From the sequence record MH719082.1: 64,000 bases of DNA. One strand, 5' to 3'. Each line of letters opens with the position of its first letter. Within the stretch, counting starts at the first letter, position 1. The notes beneath the pieces were generated by a model, which was given only the letters and a program-made list of their open reading frames with translations, did not search any database and had not been told where the DNA came from. Origin of the DNA: Escherichia phage vB_EcoM_IME392. Shown here one piece after another: positions 2,084 to 61,203 of the stretch. The translations under genes and the position numbers were made by a program.

Positions 2084-2114
2084 TTAACAGCCTTTGGAAC
2101 CCTATAAAGAGCGG
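2084..2114 (-). promoter_or_regulatory. 31-bp conserved intergenic motif (putative phage-RNAP promoter)
   Basis: TTAACAGCCTTT..AAAGAGCGG on + strand; about 22 nt upstream of minus-strand start at 2062. Confidence 0.5.
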
Positions 2115-2116
2115 TT

Positions 2117-2746
2117 TTATTTAGGTATCCATGAATACTTCAAATCCCATGGTCTCGGAGTACCATGGAAGCATACTACCGCAACTCCATTAGGCACCGA
2201 CCCGTTTCCGGTAGACCTATGACAGTAATGCTCCTGGTCAGGACCTACTACTGATACCTTGTAGGAACAGAATTTACCTGGGTATAGATCCTGTATGCGA
2301 GGTACTCCATTAAAGAATGGGCAGATAAACTCCTGATCACCACCTACAGAGTGATTAGCCATGAATCTATCTGGGCTAACTATCCAGGCATTCCAGATGC
2401 GCTCAGCTAAGATAGGCTCAACACGCATCACGCTACTGTTAACCATCCCAGTATGATACCAGTCACGAAGAATAGTTGATTCGTCGCAATTAAGCAAGAA
2501 CGTAATATCGTCGATAATTGCTGTGTCTAAGTCGAAGAACACGAACGGCTCCTGGATAGTGAATAACTCCATCTTACTCCACCAGCCAGGATAATCATAC
2601 TTCATAGGTATCCACTCAACTCCTTCGATAGGCTCTTTAGAGATACATGCATATCTCGTACCCTCTGGGAGTTGTCTACCTACCCATTTAACGTGATCTT
2701 CTGTGAAGTCCTTACCCTTACGAAATACCGTAACCACTAACGACAT
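2117..2746 (-). CDS. hypothetical protein (209 aa)
   Basis: ORF track; adjacent to glycosyltransferase genes. Confidence 0.55.
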   Translation of the reverse strand: MSLVVTVFRKGKDFTEDHVKWVGRQLPEGTRYACISKEPIEGVEWIPMKYDYPGWWSKMELFTIQEPFVFFDLDTAIIDDITFLLNCDESTILRDWYHTGMVNSSVMRVEPILAERIWNAWIVSPDRFMANHSVGGDQEFICPFFNGVPRIQDLYPGKFCSYKVSVVGPDQEHYCHRSTGNGSVPNGVAVVCFHGTPRPWDLKYSWIPK

Positions 2747-3705
2747 TTAGTCTTCTCCATATGTTTAAATCCCTGGATCATGTTCTTAGCCACGTTATCC
2801 CAGGTACAATCTTTAACCTTATCAGCAATCTTGGTTCTGTTAAGCTTAGGGAGTATTTCATCCCAGTTTATCTTAGCACCAACTATGTGATGCTCCACAG
2901 ATTCCAGACGATCCTTAGGAATTAGTCCTTCCTTAGTTACTACCAGAGCTCCGCACCGAGCCGCTTCCAGGACAGTAAGACCTAACGACTCTTTATGAGT
3001 AACTATGAAGATGTCGCAGCATCTGATTAATGCAGCGAACTCCTGACTGCTTACTCCTCCCCGACGATACTCCTCAACACTTATATTCTCCTCGTCGATA
3101 ACGCATAATCCATTATCGGTAAGAGTGTAAGATACGTGAGGAACCGGAATATGCTTAAGGTTCATCATCATGGTTAGGGAGTAATCGAAGTCCGACAGAT
3201 CAAATAGAGGATGGTCTACGAATATCCTAAGTATACCATCTGACATTTTCTCTGGGTGGAATAGCTTATCATCAGCTGCCCACCCTACCTGCCAGTTATT
3301 ATCCAGATGTCTTTTCAGACGACTCGGATTGTCTAAGTACTTATAGGTATCATCTCGAAGAGTGAAAGTTACATCTACCTGTTTACAGTCCAGCATCGAA
3401 CCATCATAGATATGGGTAACTAATCCCTTAAAGTTCTTTTTAAGGTACTCACCTATCTCGTGAGGGATCTGGGTGAATGGTCTTACTCCTACGTATAGGA
3501 TATGATCACACTCCTCTTCCCTAGCTATTTCTAATACCTGATCGGCATAAACATGTGGATTAATCGAATCGTGGTATTCTGGCCAGAATACCAACTCTAC
3601 TCCGTTATCCTCCAGAGCGCCTCGGAGATGATATTTCCACATGGTACTGAAGTTGGTTATCTGATGTGAACTACCAGGACAATTCGCTATATACAGTAAC
3701 TTCAT
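2737..3705 (-). CDS. GT-B fold glycosyltransferase (GT4-like)
   Basis: C-terminal ESLGLTVLEAARCGALVV matches the E-x7-E sugar-donor motif region of GT4 enzymes. Confidence 0.6.
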   Translation of the reverse strand: MKLLYIANCPGSSHQITNFSTMWKYHLRGALEDNGVELVFWPEYHDSINPHVYADQVLEIAREEECDHILYVGVRPFTQIPHEIGEYLKKNFKGLVTHIYDGSMLDCKQVDVTFTLRDDTYKYLDNPSRLKRHLDNNWQVGWAADDKLFHPEKMSDGILRIFVDHPLFDLSDFDYSLTMMMNLKHIPVPHVSYTLTDNGLCVIDEENISVEEYRRGGVSSQEFAALIRCCDIFIVTHKESLGLTVLEAARCGALVVTKEGLIPKDRLESVEHHIVGAKINWDEILPKLNRTKIADKVKDCTWDNVAKNMIQGFKHMEKTKCR

Positions 3706-4306
3706 TCACCCATTCCTCAACAGTAGTTTTACGAGTCCCACCAATCCCTGATAAGGACTGAATATTTATCTTCTCTGTAGCCGACTTAATTAAAATAGGA
3801 AGATGGCTAAGGTTATTTGGTACCCCACCAGATATTCTTGGTTCTGGACTACCATCTACCCCAACCAACAAGAGATCAGTGTAACCCATATGATAAGCTA
3901 ATCCGATCGCCCCATAAGCGCTATTCCCAGAACTGATTACATCAGGATCCTCAGATAACCCAGGAACTGCTCTCCATCTCCACAACCACCATAGGGGAGT
4001 GCCGTAGATAGGCTCCTCCCCACGATGTTCGTCCCGCTTAAGTAAGTGTGCTCCATAATCTGAATACAGATGCATATCTGCTTCGTCAACAGCTAGATAA
4101 TAACGAGTACCCATCTTAGGGTTTTGGATACGACATAGATTAGCTTGGCTAGGGTCTAGGGTAAAGAAGTAATTAGCTCTGGGTAGCCACTCTATCGCTC
4201 CGTTAACTGCAAATATCGGTATCTCATGTGGAGGAGTAAATCCTCTTGCCGATGGTCCATCTGCTACAATTATAGCAGGTCTTCTATACTTAGCCTCTCG
4301 AAGCAT
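3671..4306 (-). CDS. MptE/Maf-like (DUF115) or GT42-like transferase, paralog 1
   Basis: ADGPS motif and VGVDGS block resembling the GNGPS / GxDF motifs of sialyltransferase-like and Maf proteins; paralogous to next gene. Confidence 0.4.
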   Translation of the reverse strand: MLREAKYRRPAIIVADGPSARGFTPPHEIPIFAVNGAIEWLPRANYFFTLDPSQANLCRIQNPKMGTRYYLAVDEADMHLYSDYGAHLLKRDEHRGEEPIYGTPLWWLWRWRAVPGLSEDPDVISSGNSAYGAIGLAYHMGYTDLLLVGVDGSPEPRISGGVPNNLSHLPILIKSATEKINIQSLSGIGGTRKTTVEEWVNEVTVYSELSW

Positions 4307-4806
4307 GTTATTTTAGTCCTTCTGGTACAATTGATTACAGCAATACTATCTGGAAGGTATTTCTTGACCAAGTAATAGTCCTCCATCCATTTAGCAACTG
4401 TTTCCAGATCGGGATTAGTTAATTTACCAATATGATCCCCGTGGAAATGGCTGCCCTCAGAGATATCGCAGTCATATCCAAGAAGTACTATCTCTTTAGG
4501 AGCGAATACGCTGGCTAAGAAGATAGCTTGAGCACCTGAGTTATAGCAACTATTCAAGTAGAAGAACTGTTTCACATCTGGATGATTCTCTACCGGAAGA
4601 TGGCTATACTTAGAGCAAGTGCTTGGAATATTATCATAATTATACTCCCACCAGATAGGATCGAATCCATAAACTATGTTGGGAGGTCTGGATGAGAACA
4701 TGGCGTTGTTAGCGCTAATAACCAAGTCGGACTTACTAGCAAGTAGTAAATAATCCTCCTCGGTTAGAGAAGGACCGCTAGCTACACACATTATTCTCTT
4801 TATCAT
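4270..4806 (-). CDS. MptE/Maf-like (DUF115) or GT42-like transferase, paralog 2
   Basis: ASGPSLTEEDY and LLGYDCD...HFHGDH motifs; tandem paralog of 3671-4306. Confidence 0.4.
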   Translation of the reverse strand: MIKRIMCVASGPSLTEEDYLLLASKSDLVISANNAMFSSRPPNIVYGFDPIWWEYNYDNIPSTCSKYSHLPVENHPDVKQFFYLNSCYNSGAQAIFLASVFAPKEIVLLGYDCDISEGSHFHGDHIGKLTNPDLETVAKWMEDYYLVKKYLPDSIAVINCTRRTKITCFERLSIEDLL

Positions 4807-6106: not shown

Positions 6107-6522
6107 TTGCTTAAGTCCGTAATCTGGATGATGCGAGAAGCATTCTGGGCAAAGTCTTCTGCAGTACTAATCGGATAGCATACTGCCCAGGAGTGTACTT
6201 CACGAAGACGAGCTGTCAGCTTATCGATAACTTCAGCAGCACGATACATGAGATCATACTCTTCACTATCACAGTTTTCCTGACTGGCTATGGAGCGAAG
6301 AGCCATGGTGATGGGTACAGTACGGTTATGGAAGTGCGGGCTAGTTACAGTCAGCAGCTCTCCCTTCTCGTCCTTATCTCCCTCCAGATTAATGACATCT
6401 TCAATAGTCATCAGGAGGCTAGGCAGATCCAGTTGTTGGATATCTTCACGGATGATGCCTTTAGCTACCAGCATTTTAGTTACTGCGGCCGCCAGGATCT
6501 CATAAGCATTATCTTTGTTCAT
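6103..6522 (-). CDS. hypothetical protein (139 aa)
   Basis: Internal ATG at 6522 with GGAGA RBS. Confidence 0.45.
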   Translation of the reverse strand: MNKDNAYEILAAAVTKMLVAKGIIREDIQQLDLPSLLMTIEDVINLEGDKDEKGELLTVTSPHFHNRTVPITMALRSIASQENCDSEEYDLMYRAAEVIDKLTARLREVHSWAVCYPISTAEDFAQNASRIIQITDLSK

Positions 6523-8994: not shown

Positions 8995-9026
8995 CTTTGT
9001 TATTCCTTACGGTTGGATTGACACTT

Positions 9027-9056
9027 TAACAGCCTTTTAGCACCCTAAAAGAGCGG
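9027..9056 (-). promoter_or_regulatory. 31-bp conserved intergenic motif (putative phage-RNAP promoter)
   Basis: Abuts stop of upstream gene; about 33 nt upstream of ligase start at 8994; internal hairpin CTTTTAG-cacc-CTAAAAG. Confidence 0.5.
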
Positions 9057-9058
9057 AA

Positions 9059-9832
9059 TTAGCGATTCTCAGGTTCTACGTATTCCAGGCCCAGCAGCTG
9101 ATACAGTTCTTCCTCAGAGGAATTAGTATCCACACGCTCACCAGTCTCTACATTAAACAGGCCGTACTCATTAAGAGTCATGCCCATACGCTTAGCCACC
9201 GAACGCATGTGTACGTTATTCTGCATTGATCCTGTGGAGTGAAGTAAGCATGCATTCCAGGATTCTTCTGGACATATCTTGATATCGAACTCCAGACCAG
9301 TAGCGCAGTGTACGAAGCGGATCTTTTTATCCCCACCATAAACTTCTTCCATACCGGTAAGACGGAAGGCATGGCGAACCACTTCTGGAGGGTAAGTAGT
9401 GATCAGATCAACATCGCGAATCCACATCTTACCGCGACGTACTGAACCAGCAGTAGAGATCCGACCAGCAGATCCTTCAGCTAATCCTAACTTAGCCACT
9501 TCCATAAGGTAGGATTCTATGATATCCTTAAACTCGGTAGAGTAGGCAACACGCCCTTCTGGGACTTTAGACATAAGTTCAATGAACTTAGGAGTCATGG
9601 TACCATACTTGGCGAATGCTTCTAACTCGCTAGCAATCCCAGCACCGATCCATGGGATTGTAGTGAAGTTCATCTGGGAAGTTACACCATACGGGTAATC
9701 ATCCAGGGAACGGGCTGCACGATCATACGCCCGAACATGCCACATCGAGTCACCATGAGCTTTCTTAAGCTCGGCTATTTGGCGAAGGTGGCGAACAGCA
9801 TCAATACGGAAGGTCATCCTAACAGGCTCCAA
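9059..9832 (-). CDS. DNA polymerase beta-like (family X) nucleotidyltransferase
   Basis: GSVRRGKMWIRDVDLI matches Pol beta GSFRRG...DMDVLL catalytic motif. Confidence 0.6.
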   Translation of the reverse strand: MEPVRMTFRIDAVRHLRQIAELKKAHGDSMWHVRAYDRAARSLDDYPYGVTSQMNFTTIPWIGAGIASELEAFAKYGTMTPKFIELMSKVPEGRVAYSTEFKDIIESYLMEVAKLGLAEGSAGRISTAGSVRRGKMWIRDVDLITTYPPEVVRHAFRLTGMEEVYGGDKKIRFVHCATGLEFDIKICPEESWNACLLHSTGSMQNNVHMRSVAKRMGMTLNEYGLFNVETGERVDTNSSEEELYQLLGLEYVEPENR

Positions 9833-10511: not shown

Positions 10512-10586
10512 TGGGGCCGCCGGAGGCCGCCCCACCCAAAAGAACGGGCTTTAAACCCGTTCATAATTCGTTTATTTGAAAAATAA
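10512..10586 (-). repeat. composite conserved intergenic element, family B, copy 1
   Basis: GC-rich hairpin + CACCCAAAAGAACGGGCTTTA + spacer + CGTTTATTTGAAAAATAA. Confidence 0.5.
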
Positions 10587-14011: not shown

Positions 14012-14093
14012 GGGAAGCGCCTTGACGCCCCCGCCCACAAGAACGGGCTTTAGGACGGTTCAAAAATCGTTTATTTGAAAAATAAAACGTTTT
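14012..14093 (-). repeat. composite conserved intergenic element, family B, copy 2
   Basis: Same core CCCACAAGAACGGGCTTTA...AAAAATCGTTTATTTGAAAAATAA. Confidence 0.5.
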
Positions 14094-14728: not shown

Positions 14729-14783
14729 ATCGTACCTTAACGAGTAAATAAAAATAGGCTGTTAACCGAGGGCGCTCCCCAAG

Positions 14784-14813
14784 TTAACAGCCTTTGGACC
14801 GTATTAAACGGCG
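14784..14813 (-). promoter_or_regulatory. 31-bp conserved intergenic motif (variant)
   Basis: TTAACAGCCTTTGG...AAACGGCGG; additional upstream inverted copy GGCTGTTAAC forming 10-bp stem. Confidence 0.45.
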
Positions 14814-15148
14814 GCAGTCAGGAAGTTACTGGAGATCAGGAAATCATCCAGAGCTACTTCTGTATTCTTAGGAGTATTGTCTAACTCCCATTCACCTACT
14901 CCCAAACGGATCTTAGCCACGCCAGGAGCAATCTCTTCAATAGCTAGCTTAGAGCCACCGATTATCTGGAGGCGAAGAGCATTTACAGCTACTGCATACC
15001 CAGAGAACGCAGTCTCTACCTGGTGACGGAACTCCTGGTCGGAATTAACCTTAGCAGCGTAAGCAGCAGGTTCCATACCCAGTTGCTTAGCATACATCAG
15101 ATGAAACATGTCCAGGTTAATTTTGTTACCAGTAGTCTTCTTAGTCAT
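14804..15148 (-). CDS. hypothetical protein
   Basis: ORF track. Confidence 0.45.
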   Translation of the reverse strand: MTKKTTGNKINLDMFHLMYAKQLGMEPAAYAAKVNSDQEFRHQVETAFSGYAVAVNALRLQIIGGSKLAIEEIAPGVAKIRLGVGEWELDNTPKNTEVALDDFLISSNFLTAAV

Positions 15149-15665
15149 TCTTGATTTCCTCAGCAGTTACGCCAGTGATGTTTAAATACAGATCGGTAGG
15201 TAATTCTGGTAGGGTAGAGACATCCAGATTCTCTACGTCCTTAGCCAGAGTTATGTGAGGAGAGTATTCCGCACTGATCTCAGACGGCACCTCTCCAGAG
15301 GCACGGAGTCGATAGTTAAACGACTGTAGCAGATCGCTATCGAACGCCAGCACCAGGTAGTTAGCATTCTCACCAAAGATCTCATAGCGAGGATTCTTCA
15401 GATGAAGTTTGCTACCCACCAGATCAGCAATAGTTCCCTCATCCGGAGCACCAGTCCCCGGAGCATACATAAGGGTGCAGTGGTTATCGTGACCGGTATC
15501 GAAGTTAAGCTTATCATAATCAGCTACTTCGGAGATAACCTGCTTAAGATTATCTATCCAGGCATCAGAGTCTGGACAGAATTTTACCGAGGAGTAACCC
15601 TCGTCCACGGACTGTACAAGTCCTAACACTACTTCAGCTTTATTCATTTTTATCACCATGGCCAT
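15141..15665 (-). CDS. 2H phosphoesterase superfamily protein (LigT-like)
   Basis: Two H-x-T-x motifs (HCTLMY, HITLAK) with spacing typical of 2H phosphoesterases. Confidence 0.5.
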   Translation of the reverse strand: MAMVIKMNKAEVVLGLVQSVDEGYSSVKFCPDSDAWIDNLKQVISEVADYDKLNFDTGHDNHCTLMYAPGTGAPDEGTIADLVGSKLHLKNPRYEIFGENANYLVLAFDSDLLQSFNYRLRASGEVPSEISAEYSPHITLAKDVENLDVSTLPELPTDLYLNITGVTAEEIKND

Positions 15666-15952: not shown

Positions 15953-16457
15953 CTGTGTATCCTTTAAGTTTATTTCTATACTTAACCATTTCCTGCTTAG
16001 CTATCTCATCGCAGAGATTATTTACTTTGTAGCGAGGATTATTGAACTTCTGATGACCTTTGACATGCTTAACCTTAATGGACTTAGGGTTAAGATCGCG
16101 AAGCATTTCCATATGCTTATCTATGAATTCCTTTAGTGCCCATTCGCAATCGCATTGGACGACTACTCTAACGCCATCGAACGCTGTCTTAGTCATGGCG
16201 AACCATAAGGTCTTCATGATCCCTTCTAGCTCTGCCCAGTTATTATCTGCAGCAGTAAATCCTCCGCGAGTTATATGAGCTCGCTGCTCACCAGGAAGAC
16301 GAATCCATCCTCCGAAGCCAGCAGCCTTACTCTTATGACAGTACGATGCATCTGAGAAGATTGTTATATACCCAGTAGGGTCCAGACCGCGTTCGGGAGT
16401 ACCCTCAAAGTGGATAACTCTACCAACATCTTTCTCACCGATAGCAGGTTTCTTCAT
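15927..16457 (-). CDS. RNase H (type 1-like)
   Basis: IFSDASY, WAELEGI and VKHVKGH...NNLCDEIAKQ blocks matching RNase HI catalytic DEDD arrangement. Confidence 0.7.
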   Translation of the reverse strand: MKKPAIGEKDVGRVIHFEGTPERGLDPTGYITIFSDASYCHKSKAAGFGGWIRLPGEQRAHITRGGFTAADNNWAELEGIMKTLWFAMTKTAFDGVRVVVQCDCEWALKEFIDKHMEMLRDLNPKSIKVKHVKGHQKFNNPRYKVNNLCDEIAKQEMVKYRNKLKGYTDAGIFSGA

Positions 16458-18025
16458 TACATATCCACCGTAGTTGCCTGGAATAAACCGACTACCATTT
16501 CATGGCTTGGTTTGACTACCGGACTATCGAAGTCGATAGAGCTATTGATGTTCTGGTTAACCATCATCAGGCTACGTACTTCCCAGCAAGCACGATCAGT
16601 CAGTACACGGTGAATTGCTGCGGTATCACCATCCACGTCCATGTTCTGACCACCCATAGCCATCGGAGGAACCTGAATCTCCTTACCCATGTGAGGTCTG
16701 ACCTTAAATCCCCATACTGAGTAACGGTGTAGGGATGGCGCACGGTTCATGAACACCGTAGCATTCTCACACAGTCTCCAGCATACTTCCAGAGCTACTC
16801 GGGACTTATTCTTGTACATACGCTGGACTTTATTGCTGATGTCGTACATGTTGTACCCTTCGTTAGTCGGGCCACCATATAAGTTCTCCAGCTCACCCAG
16901 GATGTCTGGCTGAAGTAATTCGTACATCATCTTGAACGGTACACCAAGAGTATCCAGCGGAAGATGAGGAGCCGAAGTAACTACAGAACGACCGGAGTAA
17001 TCAACGCGCTTACCTAACAGGTTACCACGGATTCGACCACCCTTACCTTTAAGGTTATTGATCATCGGCTTAATTAAATTACCTCGATAGTCCTTAGTAC
17101 CCTCCAGGATTAGTCCGTTAACCATCTTCTGCATTACAATAGATTCACGAGGAATCAGAGATAACAGCGCTTCGCTGGCCTCGGCAGTATCGCGAATACT
17201 TCTGATACGGATAGCATGGCGCAGGATTCGCAGGTAGAGTAAGTTAGTTGGATGATACGACATTACCCCATTACTGATACCAACATCACGATAGCTAGGA
17301 GGATTCACCAGCACCGTAGTGTTATAGAAGTCGCTGAACTCCGTATAACCACTATTGATTACTGTAGGATCTTCGCATTCTTCGATATAGGCTTTCATAT
17401 CAGCATGGTTAGCTACCAATGCCTGGATAAGGCTTAGGAGACCTAATTCAGATGACTCATGCTCGGACATACGGCGGATCTTGATCATTACTACTGCGAG
17501 GCGCTTCGTGCTATCCTGAACTGGGATAGTGTTAGAGTAGAACATCGCATACTTCTCACGATCTTCATATTCCGGAAGAGCAGCATTAGCCTCACGAACC
17601 CGCTCCCGATCATCGCCAACCATCTTAGCTGCCAAACCAGCTTCCTGGACTACGAAGCGGTATTTACCGATAAGGAACTGACCGAACTCTCGCTCTGGAA
17701 ACCCGAATAACGCAGCCATGCGTTTGATAGCTAATGGATTCACATAAGGAACGATCGTCTCGATGTGACCCATACGGCGGCGACGAGATTCACGATGCAT
17801 CGCTACCATACCGCATACATTACACGGAGGCGCTCCCATAACCATCTGGTTACCACACTCACACTTACCAGTTACCAGAGGTCCGAAGATACGCTGGCAG
17901 AATAACCCACCAGTGAATGGCTTAGGATCATGGAACTTAAGGTTATACATGCCCATACTGGTTACTTCACCACTGGACTCGGCACGGATTACAGCATCAG
18001 TTGCAATAGATAACTTTAATTTCAT
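16457..18025 (-). CDS. multisubunit RNA polymerase beta-prime subunit, N-terminal portion
   Basis: GLFCQRIFGP...CECG zinc motif, RRRRMGHIE, NLLGKRVDYSGRSVV, NRAPSLHR and NMDVDGD (variant of NADFDGD) in canonical order. Confidence 0.85.
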   Translation of the reverse strand: MKLKLSIATDAVIRAESSGEVTSMGMYNLKFHDPKPFTGGLFCQRIFGPLVTGKCECGNQMVMGAPPCNVCGMVAMHRESRRRRMGHIETIVPYVNPLAIKRMAALFGFPEREFGQFLIGKYRFVVQEAGLAAKMVGDDRERVREANAALPEYEDREKYAMFYSNTIPVQDSTKRLAVVMIKIRRMSEHESSELGLLSLIQALVANHADMKAYIEECEDPTVINSGYTEFSDFYNTTVLVNPPSYRDVGISNGVMSYHPTNLLYLRILRHAIRIRSIRDTAEASEALLSLIPRESIVMQKMVNGLILEGTKDYRGNLIKPMINNLKGKGGRIRGNLLGKRVDYSGRSVVTSAPHLPLDTLGVPFKMMYELLQPDILGELENLYGGPTNEGYNMYDISNKVQRMYKNKSRVALEVCWRLCENATVFMNRAPSLHRYSVWGFKVRPHMGKEIQVPPMAMGGQNMDVDGDTAAIHRVLTDRACWEVRSLMMVNQNINSSIDFDSPVVKPSHEMVVGLFQATTVDM

Positions 18026-19123: not shown

Positions 19124-19196
19124 TGAAGCGCGACCGCACCCCACCCAAAAGAACGGGCTTTATGAGCTCCCAAAAATCGGTTATTTGAAAAATAAA
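19124..19196 (-). repeat. composite conserved intergenic element, family B, copy 3
   Basis: CACCCAAAAGAACGGGCTTTA...CCCAAAAATCGGTTATTTGAAAAATAA. Confidence 0.5.
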
Positions 19197-19903: not shown

Positions 19904-21418
19904 TTATTTGTTATTCAGATTTAACCCAGCAATGATCATCTCGGAACGGGTTCCGAAGCTAACATCACCATTAAGCACCGCCGAGGTAAGACGCTGCTTA
20001 ACGTTACCGTGGCCGATAGACTTCAACCAGCTAGGATGCTTCGTAGGGATGGCATCAGCTTTAATCGCCAGTACCTCACCTTTATCACCCATGCTGCGAA
20101 CGCCGATTCGTCCGTTATTCATCTTAACTAGATCAGTACATCCACGAGCAATGATCTCATGGTGAATCGATGCGATACCGATACCGATGTCGTCGAAGAT
20201 ATGCTTAAGCTGGATTGATGCTAGCTCTGCACCCTTAATAGCCGAACCAGTTTCGTGGGCAAGATCCGTGATGCACTTATACTTAGACTCAGATACCTGA
20301 GCCACCGCAGTACCTCGGCCACCTACCGTCTTCAGGATATCAGCCAAGGTATTACTTACCGAGGTACCGAATTCCTTAAGCGTAGTCGAACCAGATGTAT
20401 GCTTACCACGAAGACCAGCCTGAGTAGATGGTTCAGATATATGCTGCGCCGACGCCGTTCCAATACCGAAGTTAATCGGGAAGAAGTTAGCTGGCTTAGC
20501 CGGATCCATACCGCAGCAATGCTGACATACCCCACCCTTAGTTGATTCACAGGTAATCGGGCTAAGAACTTTCACATTACCTTCTTCATCTGCTAACTGA
20601 TCAACATTCTCTTTAGTGACCATTACTCGGTCGCTAGTGAATCGATACAGTGCCGATTTCTTAGGTAAGGTAATCACTTCCTTAGTTCCACAGTCCTCTT
20701 CGACAATAGACAGCTCTCTGGAACAGTTAACTAGCTGGCGAGCGAACCACCCAGTCGCAGGTACCAGGAAGAAGTTACCAGCCAGACCCTTACGTGCAGG
20801 TCCGCAGGTATTGAAGTAGTTGATCGGAGATAATCCAGAGCTTAAGTTCTCCATGATCGGCATCGGCATGATCTTACCAGTCATACCCACCAGAAGACCC
20901 TTAGCTACCACCATCGAACGAACCTGGGGAGGAGATACACGAGCACCGGATACACCCATCGCATACAGAGGATTATGACGGTCCACTTCTTTGAACCAGC
21001 GATCAGTACATTCGTTGATCACCTTATCAGCAGCAGCCAGACGATCCTCATACCCCATCTTACCAAGCTCCTGGGTCATAGCTGGGAAGTCAATACCGAA
21101 GTCAAACTTAGTATCGTCATAGCACAGGCTAAGTCCAGACATAGTTGCTTTATGGAATCCGAACTGCTGCAACTTATGTAATCTACGCCCAGCTACTTCC
21201 GGAGTGTAGTTATTATTGATGTGAGAGACGATCTTCGCAGATTCCTTCTTATCGATTTCTTTCTCTGGAAGATAGCCACTGATTTCCCAAATAAACAGTC
21301 GACCGATAGTAGTTTCTTTAGGACCATCAGAGAAGTAAAAACGCACCGGAGTGGTGTAGGTTGCTTCTTTCATATCAATAAGACGGTGTAATTCATTCAA
21401 GGACTTTGATACGATCAT
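19904..21418 (-). CDS. multisubunit RNA polymerase beta-prime subunit, C-terminal portion
   Basis: GVSGARVSPPQVRSM...GPARKGLAGN, EEDCGT, GVCQHCCGMD, ASAQHISEPSTQ blocks colinear with bacterial beta-prime C-terminal half. Confidence 0.8.
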   Translation of the reverse strand: MIVSKSLNELHRLIDMKEATYTTPVRFYFSDGPKETTIGRLFIWEISGYLPEKEIDKKESAKIVSHINNNYTPEVAGRRLHKLQQFGFHKATMSGLSLCYDDTKFDFGIDFPAMTQELGKMGYEDRLAAADKVINECTDRWFKEVDRHNPLYAMGVSGARVSPPQVRSMVVAKGLLVGMTGKIMPMPIMENLSSGLSPINYFNTCGPARKGLAGNFFLVPATGWFARQLVNCSRELSIVEEDCGTKEVITLPKKSALYRFTSDRVMVTKENVDQLADEEGNVKVLSPITCESTKGGVCQHCCGMDPAKPANFFPINFGIGTASAQHISEPSTQAGLRGKHTSGSTTLKEFGTSVSNTLADILKTVGGRGTAVAQVSESKYKCITDLAHETGSAIKGAELASIQLKHIFDDIGIGIASIHHEIIARGCTDLVKMNNGRIGVRSMGDKGEVLAIKADAIPTKHPSWLKSIGHGNVKQRLTSAVLNGDVSFGTRSEMIIAGLNLNNK

Positions 21419-22547: not shown

Positions 22548-22584
22548 GACTTTCTCCAGTCTTTCAAGGTCGCAGGCAACGCGA

Positions 22585-22675
22585 CGGATCATTCGGCGGG
22601 AAACGCCCCGCCCCAAGTGAACGGGCTGTGGGGCGTCTCAAACTTCGCCAGGAAGCGTCTTTTTGAAACTATTTT
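22585..22675 (-). repeat. composite conserved intergenic element, family B, divergent copy
   Basis: GGCGGG-aaacg-CCCCGCC hairpin + CCCAAGTGAACGGGCT... + T-rich tail. Confidence 0.35.
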
Positions 22676-22678
22676 TGA

Positions 22679-22918
22679 TTAGAATCCCTGGGTAGCAATC
22701 ATGTAAACCAGGTTAGTTATCCCAGCCTCATCCGAGGAATCAAGGCCGATTCCTTTAAGGACTTCTGCAGGAACATGCTCACGAATAGCCGGAACCAGAG
22801 CAGCATGGTTACCTTTATCAAACTCTTCCCAAGACTCAGCTGGGATTGCCTCGACCAGTTCACTGAAAGAGGTGGTAGTGATGATTTCATCGTAGCGGGA
22901 TTGAGAAATGATTGTCAT
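22679..22918 (-). CDS. hypothetical protein
   Basis: ORF track; TATAAT and GGAG upstream. Confidence 0.45.
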   Translation of the reverse strand: MTIISQSRYDEIITTTSFSELVEAIPAESWEEFDKGNHAALVPAIREHVPAEVLKGIGLDSSDEAGITNLVYMIATQGF

Positions 22919-22943
22919 GATTTAACTCCGTATTATAATGAAC

Positions 22944-23048: not shown

Positions 23049-23051
23049 ATA

Positions 23052-23065
23052 GGCCATCCCTGGCC
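23052..23065 (-). terminator. intrinsic terminator-like hairpin
   Basis: GGCCA-GGGA-UGGCC followed by UAUUUUUC, just after stop of 23073-24533. Confidence 0.45.
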
Positions 23066-40713: not shown

Positions 40714-40739
40714 GTTCTGTCCTCATTAGTTTCGACACC

Positions 40740-40770
40740 TTAACAGCCTTTGGAGCCGTAAAAGAAGTGG
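40740..40770 (-). promoter_or_regulatory. 31-bp conserved intergenic motif
   Basis: Between terminator hairpin and methyltransferase start at 40713. Confidence 0.5.
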
Positions 40771-44053: not shown

Positions 44054-44088
44054 AATTTCTCCGGTCAGGTTTAAATAAGCTCACACAG

Positions 44089-44120
44089 TTTAACAGCCTT
44101 TGGAGGCCTCAAAGGAGCGG
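44089..44120 (-). promoter_or_regulatory. 31-bp conserved intergenic motif
   Basis: Upstream of topoisomerase ATPase gene start at 44053. Confidence 0.5.
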
Positions 44121-45249: not shown

Positions 45250-45335
45250 CCGCAGCGGGAACGCCCCGCCACCCAAAAGAACGGGCTTTAGGAGGTCCCA
45301 TAAATCGTTTTATTTTTCATTATTTGAAAAATAAA
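45250..45335 (-). repeat. composite conserved intergenic element, family B, copy 5
   Basis: GCGGG-aacgc-CCCGC hairpin + CACCCAAAAGAACGGGCTTTA...AAATCGTTTTATTTTTCATTATTTGAAAAATAA. Confidence 0.5.
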
Positions 45336-50056: not shown

Positions 50057-50117
50057 CTTTGTGATCTCTATTTAAACAATGTTTCAACAATCATAATCAG
50101 AGTTGCCCTCTGACACC

Positions 50118-50148
50118 TTAACAGCCTTTCGACCCTCCAAAAGAGCGG
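50118..50148 (-). promoter_or_regulatory. 31-bp conserved intergenic motif
   Basis: Upstream of SSB-like gene start at 50056. Confidence 0.5.
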
Positions 50149-54781: not shown

Positions 54782-55321
54782 TTACTCCTCTTTACTCTGG
54801 TAAAGTAACTGGATATCTGCCGAGTTCTCGACATATTCCTGAGCTATTCGAATAGCTCTAACGACCATAGCCTTCTCTCCCCAGCTTAGGAATTCTGGGG
54901 TAGCAGCCATCTTAACTACTAACTCGCGAGAAAGATCTTCGATACACTTAATCTTGTTCGAGACCTTAGGGAACGCAAGTCTATTATTAATAGTTATACG
55001 ATCAGCAGGAATCTGGGTGAAGGTCTCGCTGAATAGTCTATCGAAATCTCCGATATTTAATTCAGTGAAATAACCCTTACCCTCTTCTGTATCGAATATA
55101 CCATGAACAACTACTTCTTGTCGAATAGATACATTTAGTAAGTACTTCGAGTTCAACAAGATAACGTAGATGCTCGAATAGCTCCGAAGATCTCGTTTCC
55201 ATGCTGATAGGGACTCAGTAGGTGATCCCTTGTATTCTACTCCCGAATTCAGAAGCATCTTACAAAATGGGTCTAGGCTGTTAATTACTACAGTACTCAT
55301 TGTATTCTCCTCACGTGCCAC
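54782..55321 (-). CDS. hypothetical protein
   Basis: ORF track. Confidence 0.45.
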   Translation of the reverse strand: MAREENTMSTVVINSLDPFCKMLLNSGVEYKGSPTESLSAWKRDLRSYSSIYVILLNSKYLLNVSIRQEVVVHGIFDTEEGKGYFTELNIGDFDRLFSETFTQIPADRITINNRLAFPKVSNKIKCIEDLSRELVVKMAATPEFLSWGEKAMVVRAIRIAQEYVENSADIQLLYQSKEE

Positions 55322-55323
55322 AG

Positions 55324-55355
55324 TTTAACAGCCTTTCGACGCTAATTAAAGGTGG
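55324..55355 (-). promoter_or_regulatory. 31-bp conserved intergenic motif (variant)
   Basis: Immediately upstream of start at 55321; overlaps stop of 55346-55657. Confidence 0.45.
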
Positions 55356-56254: not shown

Positions 56255-56310
56255 AATTTTACATAATAGGTAAGTTGGACACAGAAGGACGCAGTCACGC
56301 CTCCACCGTT

Positions 56311-56341
56311 TTAACAGCCTTTTAGGTCATTAAAACGGCGG
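56311..56341 (-). promoter_or_regulatory. 31-bp conserved intergenic motif (variant)
   Basis: TTAACAGCCTTTTAGGTCATTAAAACGGCGG; abuts stop of GT32-like gene. Confidence 0.45.
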
Positions 56342-57140: not shown

Positions 57141-57239
57141 AGTTACCTCTATGTTATTTATTTTAAACTGGATAGGGACTAATAAAGTAAATAGTAATTA
57201 AATACTTATTAATCTTCCTCTTATCTAATGCTAAGGGAA

Positions 57240-57770
57240 GCGTACTCGAGGAGTACAGAAGCTTAGCGAAGAGCGGAGTAACCATTTGATTTAAACAGTC
57301 ACCGTAGAGAGCGAAGGAGTCGCGCCCGCTTGAGGCGGCGCGACCTCCGCTTCACCAATCCTACCGGATGGACGCCTGCGACCACCCGAGCCTACCCCTG
57401 CCTCACTCACTAAAGCCACTTCGGGCTTTACCTCGTTCCGCTACGCGATACGCAGGCAGATAGCTACACTAAGTCCCCTGGAGATGGCTAGTAAGTATCC
57501 GTTACCAGACCATGTCCAACCTAACATTGACGAAGCCAGGGACTAGGCACTCCTCGCCAATAAGCTACATTAGGATTTATGTCCGTATTTCGAAGATAGG
57601 CCGATCGGGGAGACTATGCATTCATCTCTGCTCAACCAGGAAGCACCGATTAGGGTAAATACCCAAACTATCTTCTTAATGTCACTCCTCCCAGACCGCT
57701 TCGGGACTTAGCTTAAGTCTTATCCGAATAATCTGGCATCTACGACGGACCGTAGTGTATGGAGCGTACT
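57240..57770 (-). ncRNA. ORF-free structured region (candidate ncRNA or long structured leader)
   Basis: No ORF of 60 aa or more in any frame; multiple strong hairpins (e.g. GGAGUCGCGCCCGC-loop-GCGGCGCGACCUCC at 57313-57347); lies between a 31-bp motif copy and gene start at 57140. Confidence 0.35.
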
Positions 57771-57774
57771 GCAA

Positions 57775-57805
57775 TTTAACAGCCTTTTGACTCATCAAAA
57801 GAGCG
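57775..57805 (-). promoter_or_regulatory. 31-bp conserved intergenic motif
   Basis: Internal perfect hairpin CTTTTGA-ctca-TCAAAAG; precedes the ORF-free structured region. Confidence 0.5.
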
Positions 57806-57923
57806 TAATTAGGGCCCGATTATTTCACTTAGCTTCCATCCGTTCGGGCCAACACGGATCGTACATGACGTTACCGTCGTTTCAAGTCACTCGGATTATT
57901 AGTTCCCGGTGCTCATATAAAGA

Positions 57924-58002
57924 TGGTGCCACGTAGGGAATCGAACCCTATATCAGGTAAACGTCTAGCCGTAGACTGCTGAGTGCCCTCAGCTACCCTA
58001 TC
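57924..58002 (-). ncRNA. tRNA-like element (canonical T-arm and CACCA 3' end, no canonical anticodon arm)
   Basis: UAGGG-UUCGAUU-CCCUA T-arm followed by ACGUGGCACCA; upstream perfect hairpin GCUGAG-GGCA-CUCAGC; acceptor pairing not found. Confidence 0.3.
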
Positions 58003-58104
58003 ACTTAACCGAACCATCGGCAAATCTTTCACAGATACTTACACGTGATTTTCTCTGATCGGATCTGGTGATTCCTCGGAGTCGAACCGAGGAGTGGCAT
58101 AATA

Positions 58105-58180
58105 TGGTGGTCCATACTGGTTTCGAACCAGTGACCAAGCGATTATGAGTCGCCTGCTCTCACCACTGAGCTAATGGACC
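58105..58180 (-). tRNA. tRNA-Met (anticodon CAU; could be initiator, elongator or lysidine-Ile)
   Basis: Manual cloverleaf: acceptor GGUCCAU/AUGGACC, D-arm GCUC/GAGC, anticodon stem GGCGA/UCGCU with loop CUCAUAA, T-arm ACUGG-UUCGAAA-CCAGU, encoded ACCA. Confidence 0.8.
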
Positions 58181-58649
58181 GAACTAGATTGAGCGATAGG
58201 CTATGGAGTACCTTACCATCGGGCGTCTTTCGCTAAATAGCCCATCATGGGCTACCGCAGGGGCATGACACCTATCGCTCAAATTGGTCGGGATCGTGGC
58301 CCACGTCGGAGGATTTGCCAAACTCCCCATTATCATAGCCTAAGCTATCCAGACGGCCGTAACTACCCTGCTCCGGTACATGCGATAATGGGGACGTATC
58401 CAAAGATGTGGAGATCCCGTTAAAATATCTTAAGCTTCTCGCTATGTGTGTCCTACACTCTACCCTTGCGGGGTACCGGAGGATGAATCCGAACTTCCTG
58501 CGACCACACACGGAGGCCCTTGCAGACGTGCTTTATTGCGCTCATCCTGGCATAGCGAGAACTTAAGATATCTATTGATGCGCACCAGATAAGTATTTCC
58601 CAAGCCATGAACTTAATCTGGGATCTTGACCTATCCAGTGCGACTTATG
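58181..58649 (-). ncRNA. structured inter-tRNA region with long-range helices
   Basis: 12-bp inverted repeat TTGAGCGATAGG / CCTATCGCTCAA (58190-58201 and 58271-58282); 17-bp interrupted repeat 58431-58448 / 58551-58567. Confidence 0.3.
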
Positions 58650-58725
58650 TGGTACTCCCTACTGGATTCGAACCAGTGACCGTCGGTTTAGAAGACCGAT
58701 GCTCTATCCTCTGAGCTAAGGGAGC
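58650..58725 (-). tRNA. tRNA-Arg (anticodon UCU)
   Basis: Manual cloverleaf: acceptor GCUCCCU/AGGGAGU, D-arm GCUC-AGAGGAUA-GAGC, anticodon stem UCGGU/ACCGA with loop CUUCUAA, T-arm ACUGG-UUCGAAU-CCAGU, encoded CCA. Confidence 0.8.
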
Positions 58726-59302
58726 TTAACTTTAGGATGACCTCTTAGCTTACCATCGCGAAAGCTACATGGAGTGTAGTTAACGTGAACTAAGAGGTCA
58801 TCATAAAATCAGTTACTGACGAATTATACTTTCCCAACCATCCACATATACTGCGTTGGCTATGTAAAGAATGCAGAACAAGCCAACGATTAAAGGATTA
58901 ATCATTGTACTTCTCCATTTAATTAAGTTACCTGCTTACTGTTACAGGGACGCCGTTCGTCGCGCCAGATTACCAATTGGCGTATTAAGCCAATCTCGCC
59001 AACCGCGTAACGCCATTGGCTGGTATCACATAGGCTTGTAGCCCTCAGTCAACCTATCCTGAGGATGAAGATCAGATACTCTCTAACGGCGGGATTGATA
59101 GTCCCAGAGTACGATCTCTTTGCCATTCTCGTATGACCTAGGAGACGACTGCCCTGGTTAAGGAGACCAGACAGCTGATATGGTTTAGTTTATTTTTAAT
59201 TTGAGTCCCACTCATACCTTACAGACTCAAGCACTGCAGACCACCATGAAGCCGACTCGTACGCTAACAGTCGACACCACGGATCCATGAAACTCCAACA
59301 AT

Positions 59303-59332
59303 TTAACAGCCTTTCGACTCATCAAAAGAGTG
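59303..59332 (-). promoter_or_regulatory. 31-bp conserved intergenic motif
   Basis: Consensus match at upstream edge of tRNA region. Confidence 0.5.
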
Positions 59333-59485
59333 TTAAATTGTCCGCTCCCTATCACCGAGCACTGTGATGATGGGAAAATAGGGAGCGAAGCGATTCCTAA
59401 GTTTTATCTCTTCTCTAAGTGATTAACCGTTACATACGATGTACCTTCTCGAAAGAATTAAGCCGGTATTGGCACTTCAGACACT

Positions 59486-59516
59486 TTAACAGCCTTTCGA
59501 CCGTACAAAAGAGCGG
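59486..59516 (-). promoter_or_regulatory. 31-bp conserved intergenic motif
   Basis: Exact 31-mer identical to copy at 61173-61203. Confidence 0.5.
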
Positions 59517-59521: not shown

Positions 59522-60064
59522 TTAGACGCTCGCCTCAGGCACTTTAACAGCCTTTGGACGTGTAAAAAGAGCGGGATTATACCATTCTGGGGTACGATAG
59601 AAAGAGATCTTACGACCCTCTTTCTTCCAGAAGTAGAATTTATCGTTGAGGTAGTTACGGTACTTCTCGTAGACTGTCTCACCAGGAGCACCTGATACAC
59701 ATGCATACGGAGTCATATCGGTCTCTGGACCTACTACCAGATTTTTAGGTAGTGCCACAAGACGGGATAAAATTTCTTCGGTTGCATGGAGCCGTCCGGT
59801 ACGTTCAAAGAATAGCATGCATAAATAGCTTGCCAAGTCACGAACGAAGTTGTAGTTACCTGACGATTCACGAACCCACTTAGCACACGGATGATTAACA
59901 TGCGTCTGCTTATAAATACCCTCGATAGCGTTTTCGCCATCCAGAACATGATGAGCAGTAGATAATAACTGAGCACACTCAATAATCATTTTATTCTGGT
60001 GCATAGGCATACAGTGGTCCATAGCACATTCTAACGCATCTTCGTGAGTACGGAAAATATTCAC
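59522..60064 (-). CDS. hypothetical protein (C-terminal 23 codons coincide with a copy of the 31-bp motif)
   Basis: ORF track; GTG start with AGGAG RBS. Confidence 0.45.
   Translation of the reverse strand: MNIFRTHEDALECAMDHCMPMHQNKMIIECAQLLSTAHHVLDGENAIEGIYKQTHVNHPCAKWVRESSGNYNFVRDLASYLCMLFFERTGRLHATEEILSRLVALPKNLVVGPETDMTPYACVSGAPGETVYEKYRNYLNDKFYFWKKEGRKISFYRTPEWYNPALFTRPKAVKVPEASV
59544..59574 (-). promoter_or_regulatory. 31-bp conserved motif copy inside annotated CDS 3' end
   Basis: Tandem with copy at 59486; encodes last 23 codons of ORF 59522-60064. Confidence 0.4.
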
Positions 60065-60148
60065 AATAATTACTCCTAACGTGGTTGCTTACTTTAAGTC
60101 TCTCGTGAAAGATTTAGAGTAAGCATCGGAGGAATTACCTCCGACACT

Positions 60149-60179
60149 TTAACAGCCTTTCGACGGCACAAAAGAGCGG
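60149..60179 (-). promoter_or_regulatory. 31-bp conserved intergenic motif
   Basis: About 85 nt upstream of start at 60064. Confidence 0.5.
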
Positions 60180-60181
60180 TT

Positions 60182-60343
60182 TTAAATTTTACATGCATCT
60201 CCGCAGTCGTCGTCACCAGGCTGGCTGATAACTTCGTCTACGTTAACCATGCGATCTTCTACACGACGAGATGCCTCGTCTAATTCTTCCTGAGATGGGA
60301 GATTGGAGAAATCCAATTCTTCACCAGATTTATTGCCTGACAT
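60182..60343 (-). CDS. small acidic protein (53 aa)
   Basis: Internal ATG at 60343 with GGAG RBS. Confidence 0.35.
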   Translation of the reverse strand: MSGNKSGEELDFSNLPSQEELDEASRRVEDRMVNVDEVISQPGDDDCGDACKI

Positions 60344-60812
60344 AATCACTCCACACGTTAATAACTTCTTTACCACAGGATTTAGCATAGGCTACACAGT
60401 TACCTGTGCCACCCGAACTACCATCCCATAGGGCTAATCCCATCTGACTACGGTTAACCATGTATCGGTTACGCACCATCATCTTGAAGGAATCATACCC
60501 AGGCTCGGACACTATAATTGTGCGACGACTTTTTCTGCATAGCTCAGTCCATTTTTCTGTATCTGCAGATCGCCACATTTTGGGTTGGTCAATCATAGGG
60601 ATTGTTGCAAAGTATGGTATTCCGAGATTGGCACATGCCTGAGCACATGCCATATCCCATCCTAACGCCATACCTATAAACCAGCAGTCCACGCTATTCT
60701 TAGCTGTAAGCTCCTGGATGTGATGTTCGGCAAACTGGGTAAGATGATCATGGCTAAAGTTATCCCATCCACCCAGCTTATCTGGCCTATGACCAGTCAC
60801 GAACATAAACAT
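60330..60812 (-). CDS. YpsA/DUF1273-like (SLOG superfamily) nucleotide-binding protein
   Basis: FVTGHRP N-terminal block and IGMALGWDMACAQAC resemble YpsA LAITGYKP ... ISGQLGVELWAAEAA. Confidence 0.45.
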   Translation of the reverse strand: MFMFVTGHRPDKLGGWDNFSHDHLTQFAEHHIQELTAKNSVDCWFIGMALGWDMACAQACANLGIPYFATIPMIDQPKMWRSADTEKWTELCRKSRRTIIVSEPGYDSFKMMVRNRYMVNRSQMGLALWDGSSGGTGNCVAYAKSCGKEVINVWSDYVRQ

Positions 60813-61153
60813 TACTTCTTGCCCATCTTAGCCTGCATAGCACGGACGGTATCCATGGCGCTGGCCAATTTGGCTGAAGTATCCTGCGGACCATCTTCTT
60901 CTAGCTGTTTCTTAAGGGACTCCATACGATCAGTAGTACCCTTAGTATCCATCTCGATTAATTCGTTGATGGTCGAACCACCCACGTTAGGTAACTTACC
61001 CAGCTGAGTAAGATCCTTAACTTCTGGGATTTTAACATGAAGTTGAATAGACTGGGATGCTCTCGCGAACGACCCAGCACGACGATTGTCTCCTACCTTA
61101 TTGTACAGGGAAGATAGGTTACCCAGGAACGTAATGATATCAGCAGTTTTCAT
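60812..61153 (-). CDS. small helix-hairpin-helix-like protein
   Basis: ATG at 61153 with GGAGG RBS; LPNVGGSTINELIE resembles an HhH motif; ORF-track start at 61195 lies inside the 31-bp motif. Confidence 0.35.
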   Translation of the reverse strand: MKTADIITFLGNLSSLYNKVGDNRRAGSFARASQSIQLHVKIPEVKDLTQLGKLPNVGGSTINELIEMDTKGTTDRMESLKKQLEEDGPQDTSAKLASAMDTVRAMQAKMGKK

Positions 61154-61172
61154 ATTTGATTCCTCCAACAAG

Positions 61173-61203
61173 TTAACAGCCTTTCGACCGTACAAAAGAG
61201 CGG
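61173..61203 (-). promoter_or_regulatory. 31-bp conserved intergenic motif (outermost copy at strand-switch region)
   Basis: 20 nt upstream of start at 61153; identical to copy at 59486. Confidence 0.5.

Follow-up and report, generated by a model that had tools for sequence, protein, structure and literature searches.

What is the family of near-identical sequences that recurs in the gaps between the minus-strand genes of Escherichia phage vB_EcoM_IME392, and which RNA polymerase would read it? The question arises from a 64,000-nucleotide stretch of sequence record MH719082.1 (the window, i.e., the whole stretch of DNA that was analyzed), in which an earlier note had described at least 21 strand-specific copies of a 31-bp intergenic motif and interpreted them as a phage-specific class of promoters. 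Distribution, architecture and homologues in other phages make a promoter the best reading of this motif, whereas the polymerase that reads it can only be inferred and is the weakest link. Promoter function in some form is quite probable for the motif, and we assign a probability of roughly 60% to the complete statement that it is a DNA-level two-part promoter read by phage-specified machinery, including the start site and the polymerase proposed below.

Escherichia phage EP_H11 (OP688485, 111 kb) shares about 95% identity with the window, and its genome consists of a 73-kb early/replication arm and a 38-kb structural arm. From 61.2 kb down to position 1, nearly all genes of the window lie on the minus strand and form the early/replication arm, which is about 92.5% coding and 7.5% non-coding and is annotated at the protein level with functions in replication, nucleotide metabolism and DNA modification; the plus-strand module from about 61.3 kb onward is the opening of the structural arm, with the terminase.

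The motif, in the following referred to as class 1, has the coding-strand consensus CCGCTCTTTT-N9-AAAGGCTGTTAA-nn-TG, and nGGAGG comes next in about half of the copies. The element is 35 nt long, consists of two boxes at fixed spacing and is followed by a G-rich stretch that often forms a hairpin. The core of the previously described 31 bp was confirmed, but conservation runs 4 nt further, to a TG at columns 38-39 of alignment A1, in which the G is invariant and the T nearly so. With a 38-column weight matrix derived from the copies, the minus (coding) strand yielded exactly 21 sites at or above 40 bits and none between 8 and 40 bits, while the best score on the plus strand was 14 bits, so that both the number of copies and their single orientation (21/21) were borne out. 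Written as the plus-strand 12-mer TTAACAGCCTTT, the motif occurs 20 times exactly, with one additional one-mismatch copy at 39899 and no exact occurrence on the minus strand; if up to two mismatches are allowed, 30 matches are found versus 5.06 expected, a number that was reached in 0 of 100 shuffled sequences. The plus-strand matches to AAAAGAACGG at 10538, 19147, 22970 and 45275 belong to a second motif class, not to class 1. The genome-wide scan for strand bias that the earlier note had called for was carried out on the complete EP_H11 genome, and the copies were not randomly placed: all 24 of 24 are intergenic, within the 73-kb early arm and on its coding strand. None was detected in the 38-kb structural arm, and also the plus-strand module of the window is free of copies, as had been stated.

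All copies in the window are located in gaps between genes, and the stop codon of the preceding gene is usually found 0-8 nt ahead of the motif or within its first 12 nt. They head operons for replication, nucleotide metabolism, DNA modification and tRNAs as well as the first genes of the arm. Copies are found, for example, upstream of the genes for an NAD-dependent DNA ligase (9022-9056), the DNA polymerase (28236-28270), a gyrB-like protein (44086-44120) and a helicase block (55321-55355), and upstream of a conserved 486-amino-acid (aa) protein (24635-24669); the copy at 56307-56341 lies within a 12-bp long-range stem that covaries with EP_H11. The copy at 2080-2114 reads CCGCTCTTTATAGGGTTCCAAAGGCTGTTAAAGTG, its last G being the predicted +1, and further copies occupy 33679-33713, 35815-35849, 50114-50148 and 60145-60179. 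Directly downstream of the 24.6-kb copy, EP_H11 carries an extra 0.9-kb gene for a 303-aa protein without Pfam hit (22571-23482 of its record, L001 20517-21428, corresponding to about 24533-24640 of the window), which replaces the leader hairpin of the window.

The expectation that nearly all copies sit between a stop codon and the next ribosome-binding site holds for the placement in gaps but not for all downstream sequences. The copies at 59544, 59486, 59303 and 57776 (elements 59540-59574, 59482-59516, 59299-59333 and 57772-57806) lie ahead of a non-coding stretch of about 2.3 kb with two tRNA genes instead of a ribosome-binding site. The copy at 59299-59333 is positioned before non-coding sequence with the tRNA-Arg gene, and that at 57772-57806 is followed by some 600 nt of non-coding sequence. 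Two of the four, at 59540 and 59482, are arranged in tandem 58 nt apart. As copies precede tRNA genes and non-coding DNA and also occur in tandem, the motif does not represent a translational element. The copy at 61169-61203 lies ahead of the first gene of the early arm, within the divergent region between both arms, and a consensus scan did not reveal any sigma70-type promoter upstream of it. The 31-mers at 59486-59516 and 61173-61203 are identical, as noted earlier; the copy at 59482-59516 is present in the window and absent from EP_H11.

The non-coding stretch itself (57160-59450, minus strand) has no credible open reading frame (ORF) and comprises tRNA-Arg(TCT), tRNA-Met(CAT) and GC-rich, structured-looking sequence, into which the four class 1 copies feed. 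Two sequences resembling tRNA 3' halves, GGTTCGATTCCCTACGTGGCACCA near 57950 and CCTCGGTTCGACTCCGAGGAATCACCA near 58085, were called neither by ARAGORN nor by Rfam. The 59303 copy is nearly palindromic (59299-59340), as its upstream box TTTAACACTCTTTT reads AAAGAGTGTTAAATTGT on the opposite strand and there forms a partial plus-strand copy of 14 bits that points the other way.

If the motif is recognized by a phage-specific factor, its sequence should follow the phage. Relatives were found through the N-terminal half of the RNA polymerase subunit beta' that is encoded in the window, which matched proteins of Acinetobacter phage Ab1-TPeters (37% identity), Ralstonia phage RP13 (35%) and, more distantly, Vibrio and Rhizobium phages; the closer relatives L104 (80% protein identity) and L105 (58%) were recovered via the neighboring 486-aa protein. 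Two papers group EP_H11 with the 'RP13-like' phages, for which hypermodified thymidine is predicted. The phages of E. coli, Acinetobacter and Ralstonia share the two-box form CTCT(T/A)(T/A)-N10-(A/G)A(C/G)C(T)TGT, in which the box starts are about 21 bp apart, corresponding to roughly two helical turns, and in which the box sequences vary between phages while the spacer stays at 10 nt. The genome of Ab1-TPeters has two arms, as in the E. coli phage, and its strand-specific, intergenic motif occurs in two types, type A with AACTCAAAATTGActtCAAAAGCTGTTTAAagTGT and type B with nCTGTyTCTTAA-N9-AAAaCCTGTTaagtTGTnGGGG. The core was counted 29 times on the plus strand versus 5 times on the minus strand, with about 3 expected; the early-arm coding strand accounts for 27 of the former. 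In the divergent region, a diverged copy that resembles type A, missed by pattern scans, was made out by eye and appears to precede the first gene of the arm. The motif of RP13 is aACGaCTCTAT-N10-GACCTTGTrrg, and L104 and L105 retain CTAAAAGGCTGTTAAnnTG at orthologous gaps, the upstream box being degenerate in L105.

The motif accordingly covaries with the phage-encoded polymerase, Ab1-TPeters, RP13, L104 and L105 each possessing box sequences of their own. Since the box sequences follow the phage and not a universal sigma70 consensus, the recognizing factor is probably phage-encoded, and conservation across phages argues for such a factor over host sigma70. Exact-pattern scans for CTCTTT-N10-AAAGGCTGTTA yielded 5 single matches in IMG/VR and 89 in a metagenome collection, all of them chance-like and without any multi-copy contig. 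A repeat of Vibrio phage Va2, gAACCTyt-N4-5-AACCTTGCT, was not counted as homologous, as it shares only CCTTG with the RP13 motif. In its own right, this repeat (gAACCTyt-N4-5-AACCTTGCTnnnTGAAT) is present in 7-8 strand-specific, intergenic copies (L013, MW073017, 54.6-96.1 kb) in a phage with an unsplit, full-length beta'.

The variable center of the motif had been described as a short hairpin with compensatory changes, which raised the question whether the element acts as RNA. Only the outer CTTT/AAAG pairs turned out to be constant, with loops of 4-11 nt. At the three variable inner pairs, 58 of 96 cells were paired versus 53.9 +/- 1.95 expected from column shuffling (p ~0.03), a small excess. 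Support for compensation is weak, and RNAalifold did not return a single consensus pair for 40 distinct copies. Across the whole central helix, pair counting gave 79.6% of cells paired, yet at the inner pairs 27-40% of cells remain unpaired. A putative outer CCGCU/GGAGG helix (51% paired) received no support from column shuffling, pair counting or RNAalifold. In the relatives, the CUUUU/AAAAG pairing is lost, the U-rich arm being CAAAA in Ab1-TPeters type A and CTAT in RP13. Rfam searches by gathering threshold and by E-value, which included the ~2.4-kb non-coding stretch, detected the two tRNAs only; neither a covarying fold nor a match to a curated model therefore places the motif among structured cis-acting RNAs. 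The promoters of phage N4 are conserved DNA hairpins with a 5-7-bp stem and a 3-nt loop at a fixed position. With inner pairs open in up to 40% of cells, variable loops and no structure by RNAalifold, the class 1 motif is not of this type. Boxes at fixed spacing without conserved pairing are, as judged from the alignments, the signature of protein recognition of DNA.

Based on the aligned copies, transcription would start at the invariant G, seven bases after CTGT. With this G as +1, CCGCTCTTTT would extend from about -34 to -25 and AAAGGCTGTTAA from about -15 to -4, with the T at -1, and the transcript would begin with the G-rich sequence GTnGGAGG, often with a 5' hairpin next. The geometry would be that of a sigma-type two-part promoter with boxes near -30 and -10. 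The same T/G register is found in the second motif class, in type B of Ab1-TPeters and in 7 of 8 RP13 copies. In addition, orthologous leader hairpins begin at the predicted start and covary, as at the 24.6-kb copy (GGTGGACGG...CCGTTCACC at 24642 in the window versus GGAGATGG...CCATCTCC at 9893 in L104). In the tightest copies (61176 in the window; 49352 in RP13, L012), the Shine-Dalgarno sequence begins 3-6 nt past the invariant G.

The second motif, class 2, is present in five intergenic coding-strand copies with the consensus AAATAAACGAtTTtTG-N9-tAAAGCCCGTTCTTTTGGGTGGGG (...AAAGCCCGTTCTTTTGGGTGGGG), each followed by a variable GC-rich hairpin and then by the conserved leader ATCTAATTTGGAG. 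Its layout parallels that of class 1 in CGnTyTTTTG, AAAGsCyGTT, the T/G and the G-run. The copies at 22969-23010 and 19146-19187, both on the minus strand as are the other three, head the blocks with the C-terminal and the N-terminal half of beta', respectively; those at 14036-14077 and 10537-10578 lie further along the arm, and the one at 45274-45315 (AAATAAAACGATTTATGGGACCTCCTAAAGCCCGTTCTTTTG) has a terminator ahead. Class 2 elements likewise precede the blocks with the beta' halves in L105, where copies are located at 11672, 14448, 17581 and 18826, and in RP13 (L012; 20842, 24929 and 29632), where the elements end in ...CAGTTAGTTTGGGTGCGGG. Class 2 is regarded as a sister class to class 1, and two classes that share a core are what would be expected of promoter classes. 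A possible third variant on the plus strand, GAAGGTTGTCCGAGG at 61295-61309 (GAAGGCTGTCCGAGG in EP_H11), is a weak, single copy about 35 nt before the first start codon of the late arm. The core string before the first late gene is GAAGG(T/C)TGTCCGAGG (about 97378 in the EP_H11 record); in the form GAAGG(T/C)TGTCCGAGGCCCGTCC it looks like the two class cores placed one after the other, and no second string of this kind is present in the late arm. When the late arm was scanned, no clear repeated motif emerged beyond this one core-like string and a few TATAAATA-like strings in gaps.

The relation of the motif to terminators turned out to be more intricate than the variable order already described, which was confirmed: a terminator comes after the 37.5-kb copy and before the copies at 39.9 and 40.8 kb. 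At three class 1 copies, terminator and motif overlap. The core AGGCTGTTAAC of the copy at 14780-14814 is the 5' arm of a terminator hairpin with T-run (14746-14793; -31.3 kcal/mol for the folded stretch) that is conserved in EP_H11. The copy at 28236-28270 is located inside the stem of the terminator CCTCCGCC...GGCGGAGG with T-run (28220-28273), which encloses the whole motif and whose stems covary in L104 and L105. At 31823-31857, the 5' arm AAGGTGTGGGAG of a terminator (31793-31828), which covaries in L104, begins 2 nt after CTGT and overlaps the 3' end of the motif. All three terminators are minus-strand features. In relatives at 80% and 58% protein identity, compensatory changes have preserved the hairpins at 28.2 and 31.8 kb, with composite counterparts at 6268-6337 and 2636-2712 in L104 and at 6545-6620 in L105. 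At all three sites, either the whole 5' arm or its first five bases are upstream of the predicted start. RNA that reads through from upstream would therefore terminate, while RNA born at the motif would lack the full arm and should continue. Such composites look like promoters built into terminators and would neatly fit the promoter model. The copy at 37554-37588 departs from this pattern in that a complete terminator (37508-37541, minus strand) lies wholly downstream of it. The copies at 39895-39929 (the variant ...CTGTTAGG...) and 40736-40770 as well as two class 2 copies show the ordinary order of terminator, then promoter. In total, 4 of the 21 class 1 copies have an overlapping or following hairpin with U-run, and the other 17 are not followed by a terminator. 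The hairpin is an addition seen at few copies, and the motif as such was rejected as an intrinsic terminator.

The promoter reading is favored because the copies are co-oriented and intergenic, occur before the first gene, before tRNA genes and non-coding DNA and in tandem, consist of two parts, lack an RNA fold and have homologues in other phages. Many near-identical, co-oriented, intergenic copies that head operons including the first one are, in general terms, also what is found for promoters specific to a phage polymerase. The machinery would be an RNA polymerase comprising the split beta' of the phage and a putative specificity factor. The two beta' genes, both on the minus strand, encode an N-terminal half with Rpb1 domains 1-2 and the motif NMDVDGD (16457-18025) and a C-terminal half with Rpb1 domains 3-5 (19904-21418). 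They are about 30% identical to enterobacterial (Salmonella) RpoC with the catalytic aspartates of NxDxDGD intact, and gave weak tblastn matches to polymerase subunits of the Staphylococcus jumbo phages S6 and MarsHill that are annotated as RNA polymerase beta'. A candidate for a polymerase-associated or specificity factor is the 486-aa protein (23073-24533, minus strand), which heads the polymerase region and has orthologues in L104, L105, Ab1-TPeters and RP13 and 27 homologues in a library of 1.84 billion proteins. Neither a single-subunit polymerase (by annotation of window and genome) nor a MotA/AsiA-like protein was recognized.

Several points weigh against this reading. The earlier claim that the window encodes a multisubunit RNA polymerase holds for the two beta' halves, but neither a beta subunit nor a sigma factor was found: tblastn with Salmonella RpoB against the complete genomes of EP_H11 and Ab1-TPeters gave only E > 0.1, Pfam and PHROGs searches of about 45 proteins did not detect beta, hhalign comparisons of four conserved neighbor families with RpoB remained below 1% probability, and no Sigma70 domain was detected by Pfam at E < 1e-3 among 92 EP_H11 ORFs. 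Either beta has diverged beyond recognition or the phage beta' works with host subunits. The mostly helical 486-aa protein matched no family or fold in a deep search and, by its AlphaFold model, in two fold searches. The beta' genes lie in the same arm behind class 2 elements. As they are themselves preceded by motif-type elements, the polymerase that initiates must already exist at infection, either packaged in the virion or provided by the host, whose enzyme would then have to recognize one class or both; a virion-packaged polymerase is plausible in this phage. In addition, the start site is a prediction, the complete strong terminator between the 37554-37588 copy and the next gene is awkward for a productive promoter, the central stem shows its small excess of pairing, and the 3' box of the E. 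coli phage fits an extended -10 element.

The latter point leads to an alternative in which host sigma70 recognizes CTG-T-TAAnnT as an extended -10, a phage activator or a sigma region 4 with altered target binds the box CGCTCTTT, similar to the MotA box and -10 of T4 middle promoters, and the phage beta' serves another class of genes, e.g., the late genes. The earlier note had seen no sigma70-like -35/-10 pair; the -35 hexamer is indeed missing, CTTTTG occupying its place, but CTGTTAAnnT agrees with the extended -10 TGnTAnnnT in 20 of 21 window copies, including the T at hexamer position 6. The lack of a recognizable phage sigma or beta and the need for a pre-existing polymerase, with the beta' genes downstream of motif-type elements, would also be accounted for. 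A consensus scan of 44-62 kb, however, found 36 sigma70 -35/-10 sites versus 33 expected and none at a motif copy, and TAAnnT at -12 to -7 would move the start of the first gene's transcript into its Shine-Dalgarno sequence or beyond (61176 in the window; 97495 in EP_H11). Recognition of the -10 element by sigma70 is conserved across E. coli, Acinetobacter and Ralstonia hosts, whereas its TA is missing in RP13 (GACCTTGTrrg) and in many copies of Ab1-TPeters (CCTGTTTGGTT, CCTGTTTCGTT). At the very first gene, there would also be no time to synthesize an activator unless it is injected. On these comparative and spacing grounds, the extended -10 is disfavored as an explanation, and a host sigma70 promoter is considered unlikely. 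The other main rival, which the earlier note had named as its alternative, is an RNA processing site at which a phage or host endoribonuclease would cut polycistronic RNA into hairpin-protected monocistronic mRNAs; it would have analogues in the RNase III sites of T7 and the RegB sites of T4. It agrees with the intergenic, strand-specific position of the motif, with hairpins on either side in various orders and with the small excess of central pairing. But no secondary structure is conserved, and the stem is lost in Ab1-TPeters type A and RP13 while the 10-nt spacer between the boxes is fixed. Moreover, the first-gene copy has no recognizable promoter ahead that would provide an RNA to be cut, at three terminators the RNA would end within or just after the motif with nothing left downstream to cut, and tandem copies 58 nt apart are difficult to reconcile with processing, which renders this possibility improbable as well.

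Extremely doubtful is a role as a nut-like antitermination or polymerase-modifying signal, by which polymerases passing the motif would resist the terminators beyond. The 5' half CGCUCUUU resembles boxA of lambda nut sites and rrn leaders, CGCTCTTT being identical to the first 8 bases of the boxA consensus, CGCUCUUUAACAA, and four copies lie immediately before or inside terminator hairpins; yet no terminator follows the other 17 of the 21 copies. Although Proteobacteria share a conserved boxA, the upstream box varies: it reads CTCAAA or CTCTTA in the phage of Acinetobacter, CTCTAT in that of Ralstonia, and is degenerate in L105, where the 3' box is intact. The 3' box is the most conserved part and has no counterpart in nut sites. 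With 21-24 copies, a box that varies by phage and a first copy without an upstream promoter candidate, the motif was not assigned to this family. That it is a cassette for recombination and shuffling or an operator, without initiation activity of its own, is very unlikely. The identical 31-mers 1.7 kb apart, the window copy absent from EP_H11 and the 0.9-kb EP_H11 gene inserted directly after the 24.6-kb copy are in line with shuffling, which in T4-like phages is mediated by PeSLs, i.e., repeated promoter-terminator cassettes (PMC4122927). However, shuffling at PeSLs is a by-product of their promoter and terminator nature and does not conflict with promoter function, and a pure operator could dispense with the strict co-orientation with genes, the invariant TG and the G-rich start at a set distance.

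A more far-reaching proposal, rather improbable in our view, is that recognition of the motif is confined to the phage's own DNA with its hypermodified thymidine and is carried out by an unusual enzyme with a non-sigma specificity factor. This enzyme might be a hybrid of the split beta' on host beta and alpha or a polymerase with an unrecognizably divergent second large subunit; modified T at TGTT and T(-1) would serve as a self-versus-host mark, as uracil does for AR9, and the two classes would form a cascade in which class 2 leads to beta' and class 1 to replication.

How the proposed two-part promoter would compare with known systems is instructive. In jumbo phages that encode RNA polymerases, a bioinformatically identified motif upstream of early operons proved to be the promoter of the virion polymerase (PMC7598289). 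The early promoters of phiKZ and AR9/PBS2 are, like the motif described here, phage-specific, co-oriented and upstream of early operons in genomes with beta'-like genes (PMC7598289). They differ in being a single AT-rich block of about 10 nt centered at -10, whereas the element here is 35 nt long, two-part and not AT-rich with the 3' box AAAGGCTGTTAA, so that it was not assigned to this promoter type; in addition, jumbo phages have two full sets of beta and beta' pieces, while only one split beta' is detectable here. The late promoter of the AR9 non-virion polymerase, 5'-A(-11)ACA-N6-U(-1)A/G(+1), requires uracil. If the start is the invariant G, the present motif has the same register, G(-11)CTG(-8)-N6-T(-1)G(+1), and to the non-canonical base needed by AR9 would correspond the hypermodified thymidine predicted for the phage; the AR9 promoter has a different core sequence, lacks an upstream box and is read on the template strand. 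Sigma-type two-part promoters and T4 middle promoters (MotA box and -10) share with the motif a pair of boxes near -30 and -10, separated by some two helical turns, and further likeness to the sigma type lies in a beta' about 30% identical to enterobacterial RpoC and in the match to TGnTAnnnT in the E. coli phage. Unlike sigma-type promoters, the motif has no TTGACA, its boxes change with the phage host and no sigma or MotA/AsiA-like protein was recognized. Many near-identical copies in one orientation, sub-classes with a shared core, a G-rich start, a leader stem-loop and the order of terminator, then promoter are reminiscent of the T7 group, whose promoters are one contiguous 23-bp block (-17 to +6) for a single-subunit enzyme, none of which is encoded here. 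The PeSLs of T4-like phages (PMC4122927, PMC2839356) are likewise repeated intergenic cassettes of promoter and stem-loop at which indels and gene swaps occur, but their promoters are ordinary sigma70 early promoters, whereas here the promoter would be phage-specific and the terminator can use it as one arm. Sequence identity with boxA is restricted to CGCTCTTT, a box that is not conserved in the relatives, in an element with far too many copies and a 3' box without counterpart. The literature search found no promoter description for this phage group and nothing on transcription of EP_H11, RP13 or Ab1-TPeters. A paper on RNA polymerase-encoding Caudovirales did not treat promoters, and the YerA41 genome paper, in which the sigma70 tool BPROM was used, contains the sole promoter prediction found for the group.

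Besides the polymerase genes, the minus-strand arm encodes replication proteins (family A DNA polymerase, helicases, a primase-like protein, NAD-dependent ligase, gyrB/topoisomerase II and an SbcCD-like nuclease) and DNA modification functions (a thymidylate-synthase homologue, a 5-hydroxymethyldeoxyuridine (5-hmdU) DNA kinase and glycosyltransferases). The 5-hmdU DNA kinase domain is located at 33740-34711; according to a preprint, such a kinase was undetectable alongside the aGPT-Pplase gene in RP13, EP_H11 and IME92. Also on the minus strand are an Acb1-like anti-CBASS domain (15141-15665), a family X (pol beta-like) polymerase fragment (9059-9832) and a full-length gene for a betaine/carnitine/choline transporter of the BCCT family (37577-38959; Pfam E 1e-92), an unusual cargo for a lytic phage, which has a strong terminator of its own.

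If this is correct, an element of a known kind would have gained a new consensus; should nothing more than such a consensus for a phage polymerase emerge, it would be useful knowledge but no surprise. Added interest comes from the second class, the promoter-in-terminator composites and the puzzle of a polymerase represented by beta' only. The two-box element with its predicted start, sister class and composites provides a testable map of transcription units, and may serve as a handle for purifying the specificity factor, for probing the role of base modification in promoter recognition and for expression cassettes in the engineering of phages of this group, whose hosts include pathogens such as A. 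baumannii and R. solanacearum. The RP13-like/SP-15-like phages, i.e., EP_H11, Ab1-TPeters, RP13 and, more distantly, YerA41, combine hypermodified thymidine with beta' genes, and the related motifs in distant relatives suggest how this group of phages turns on its genes.

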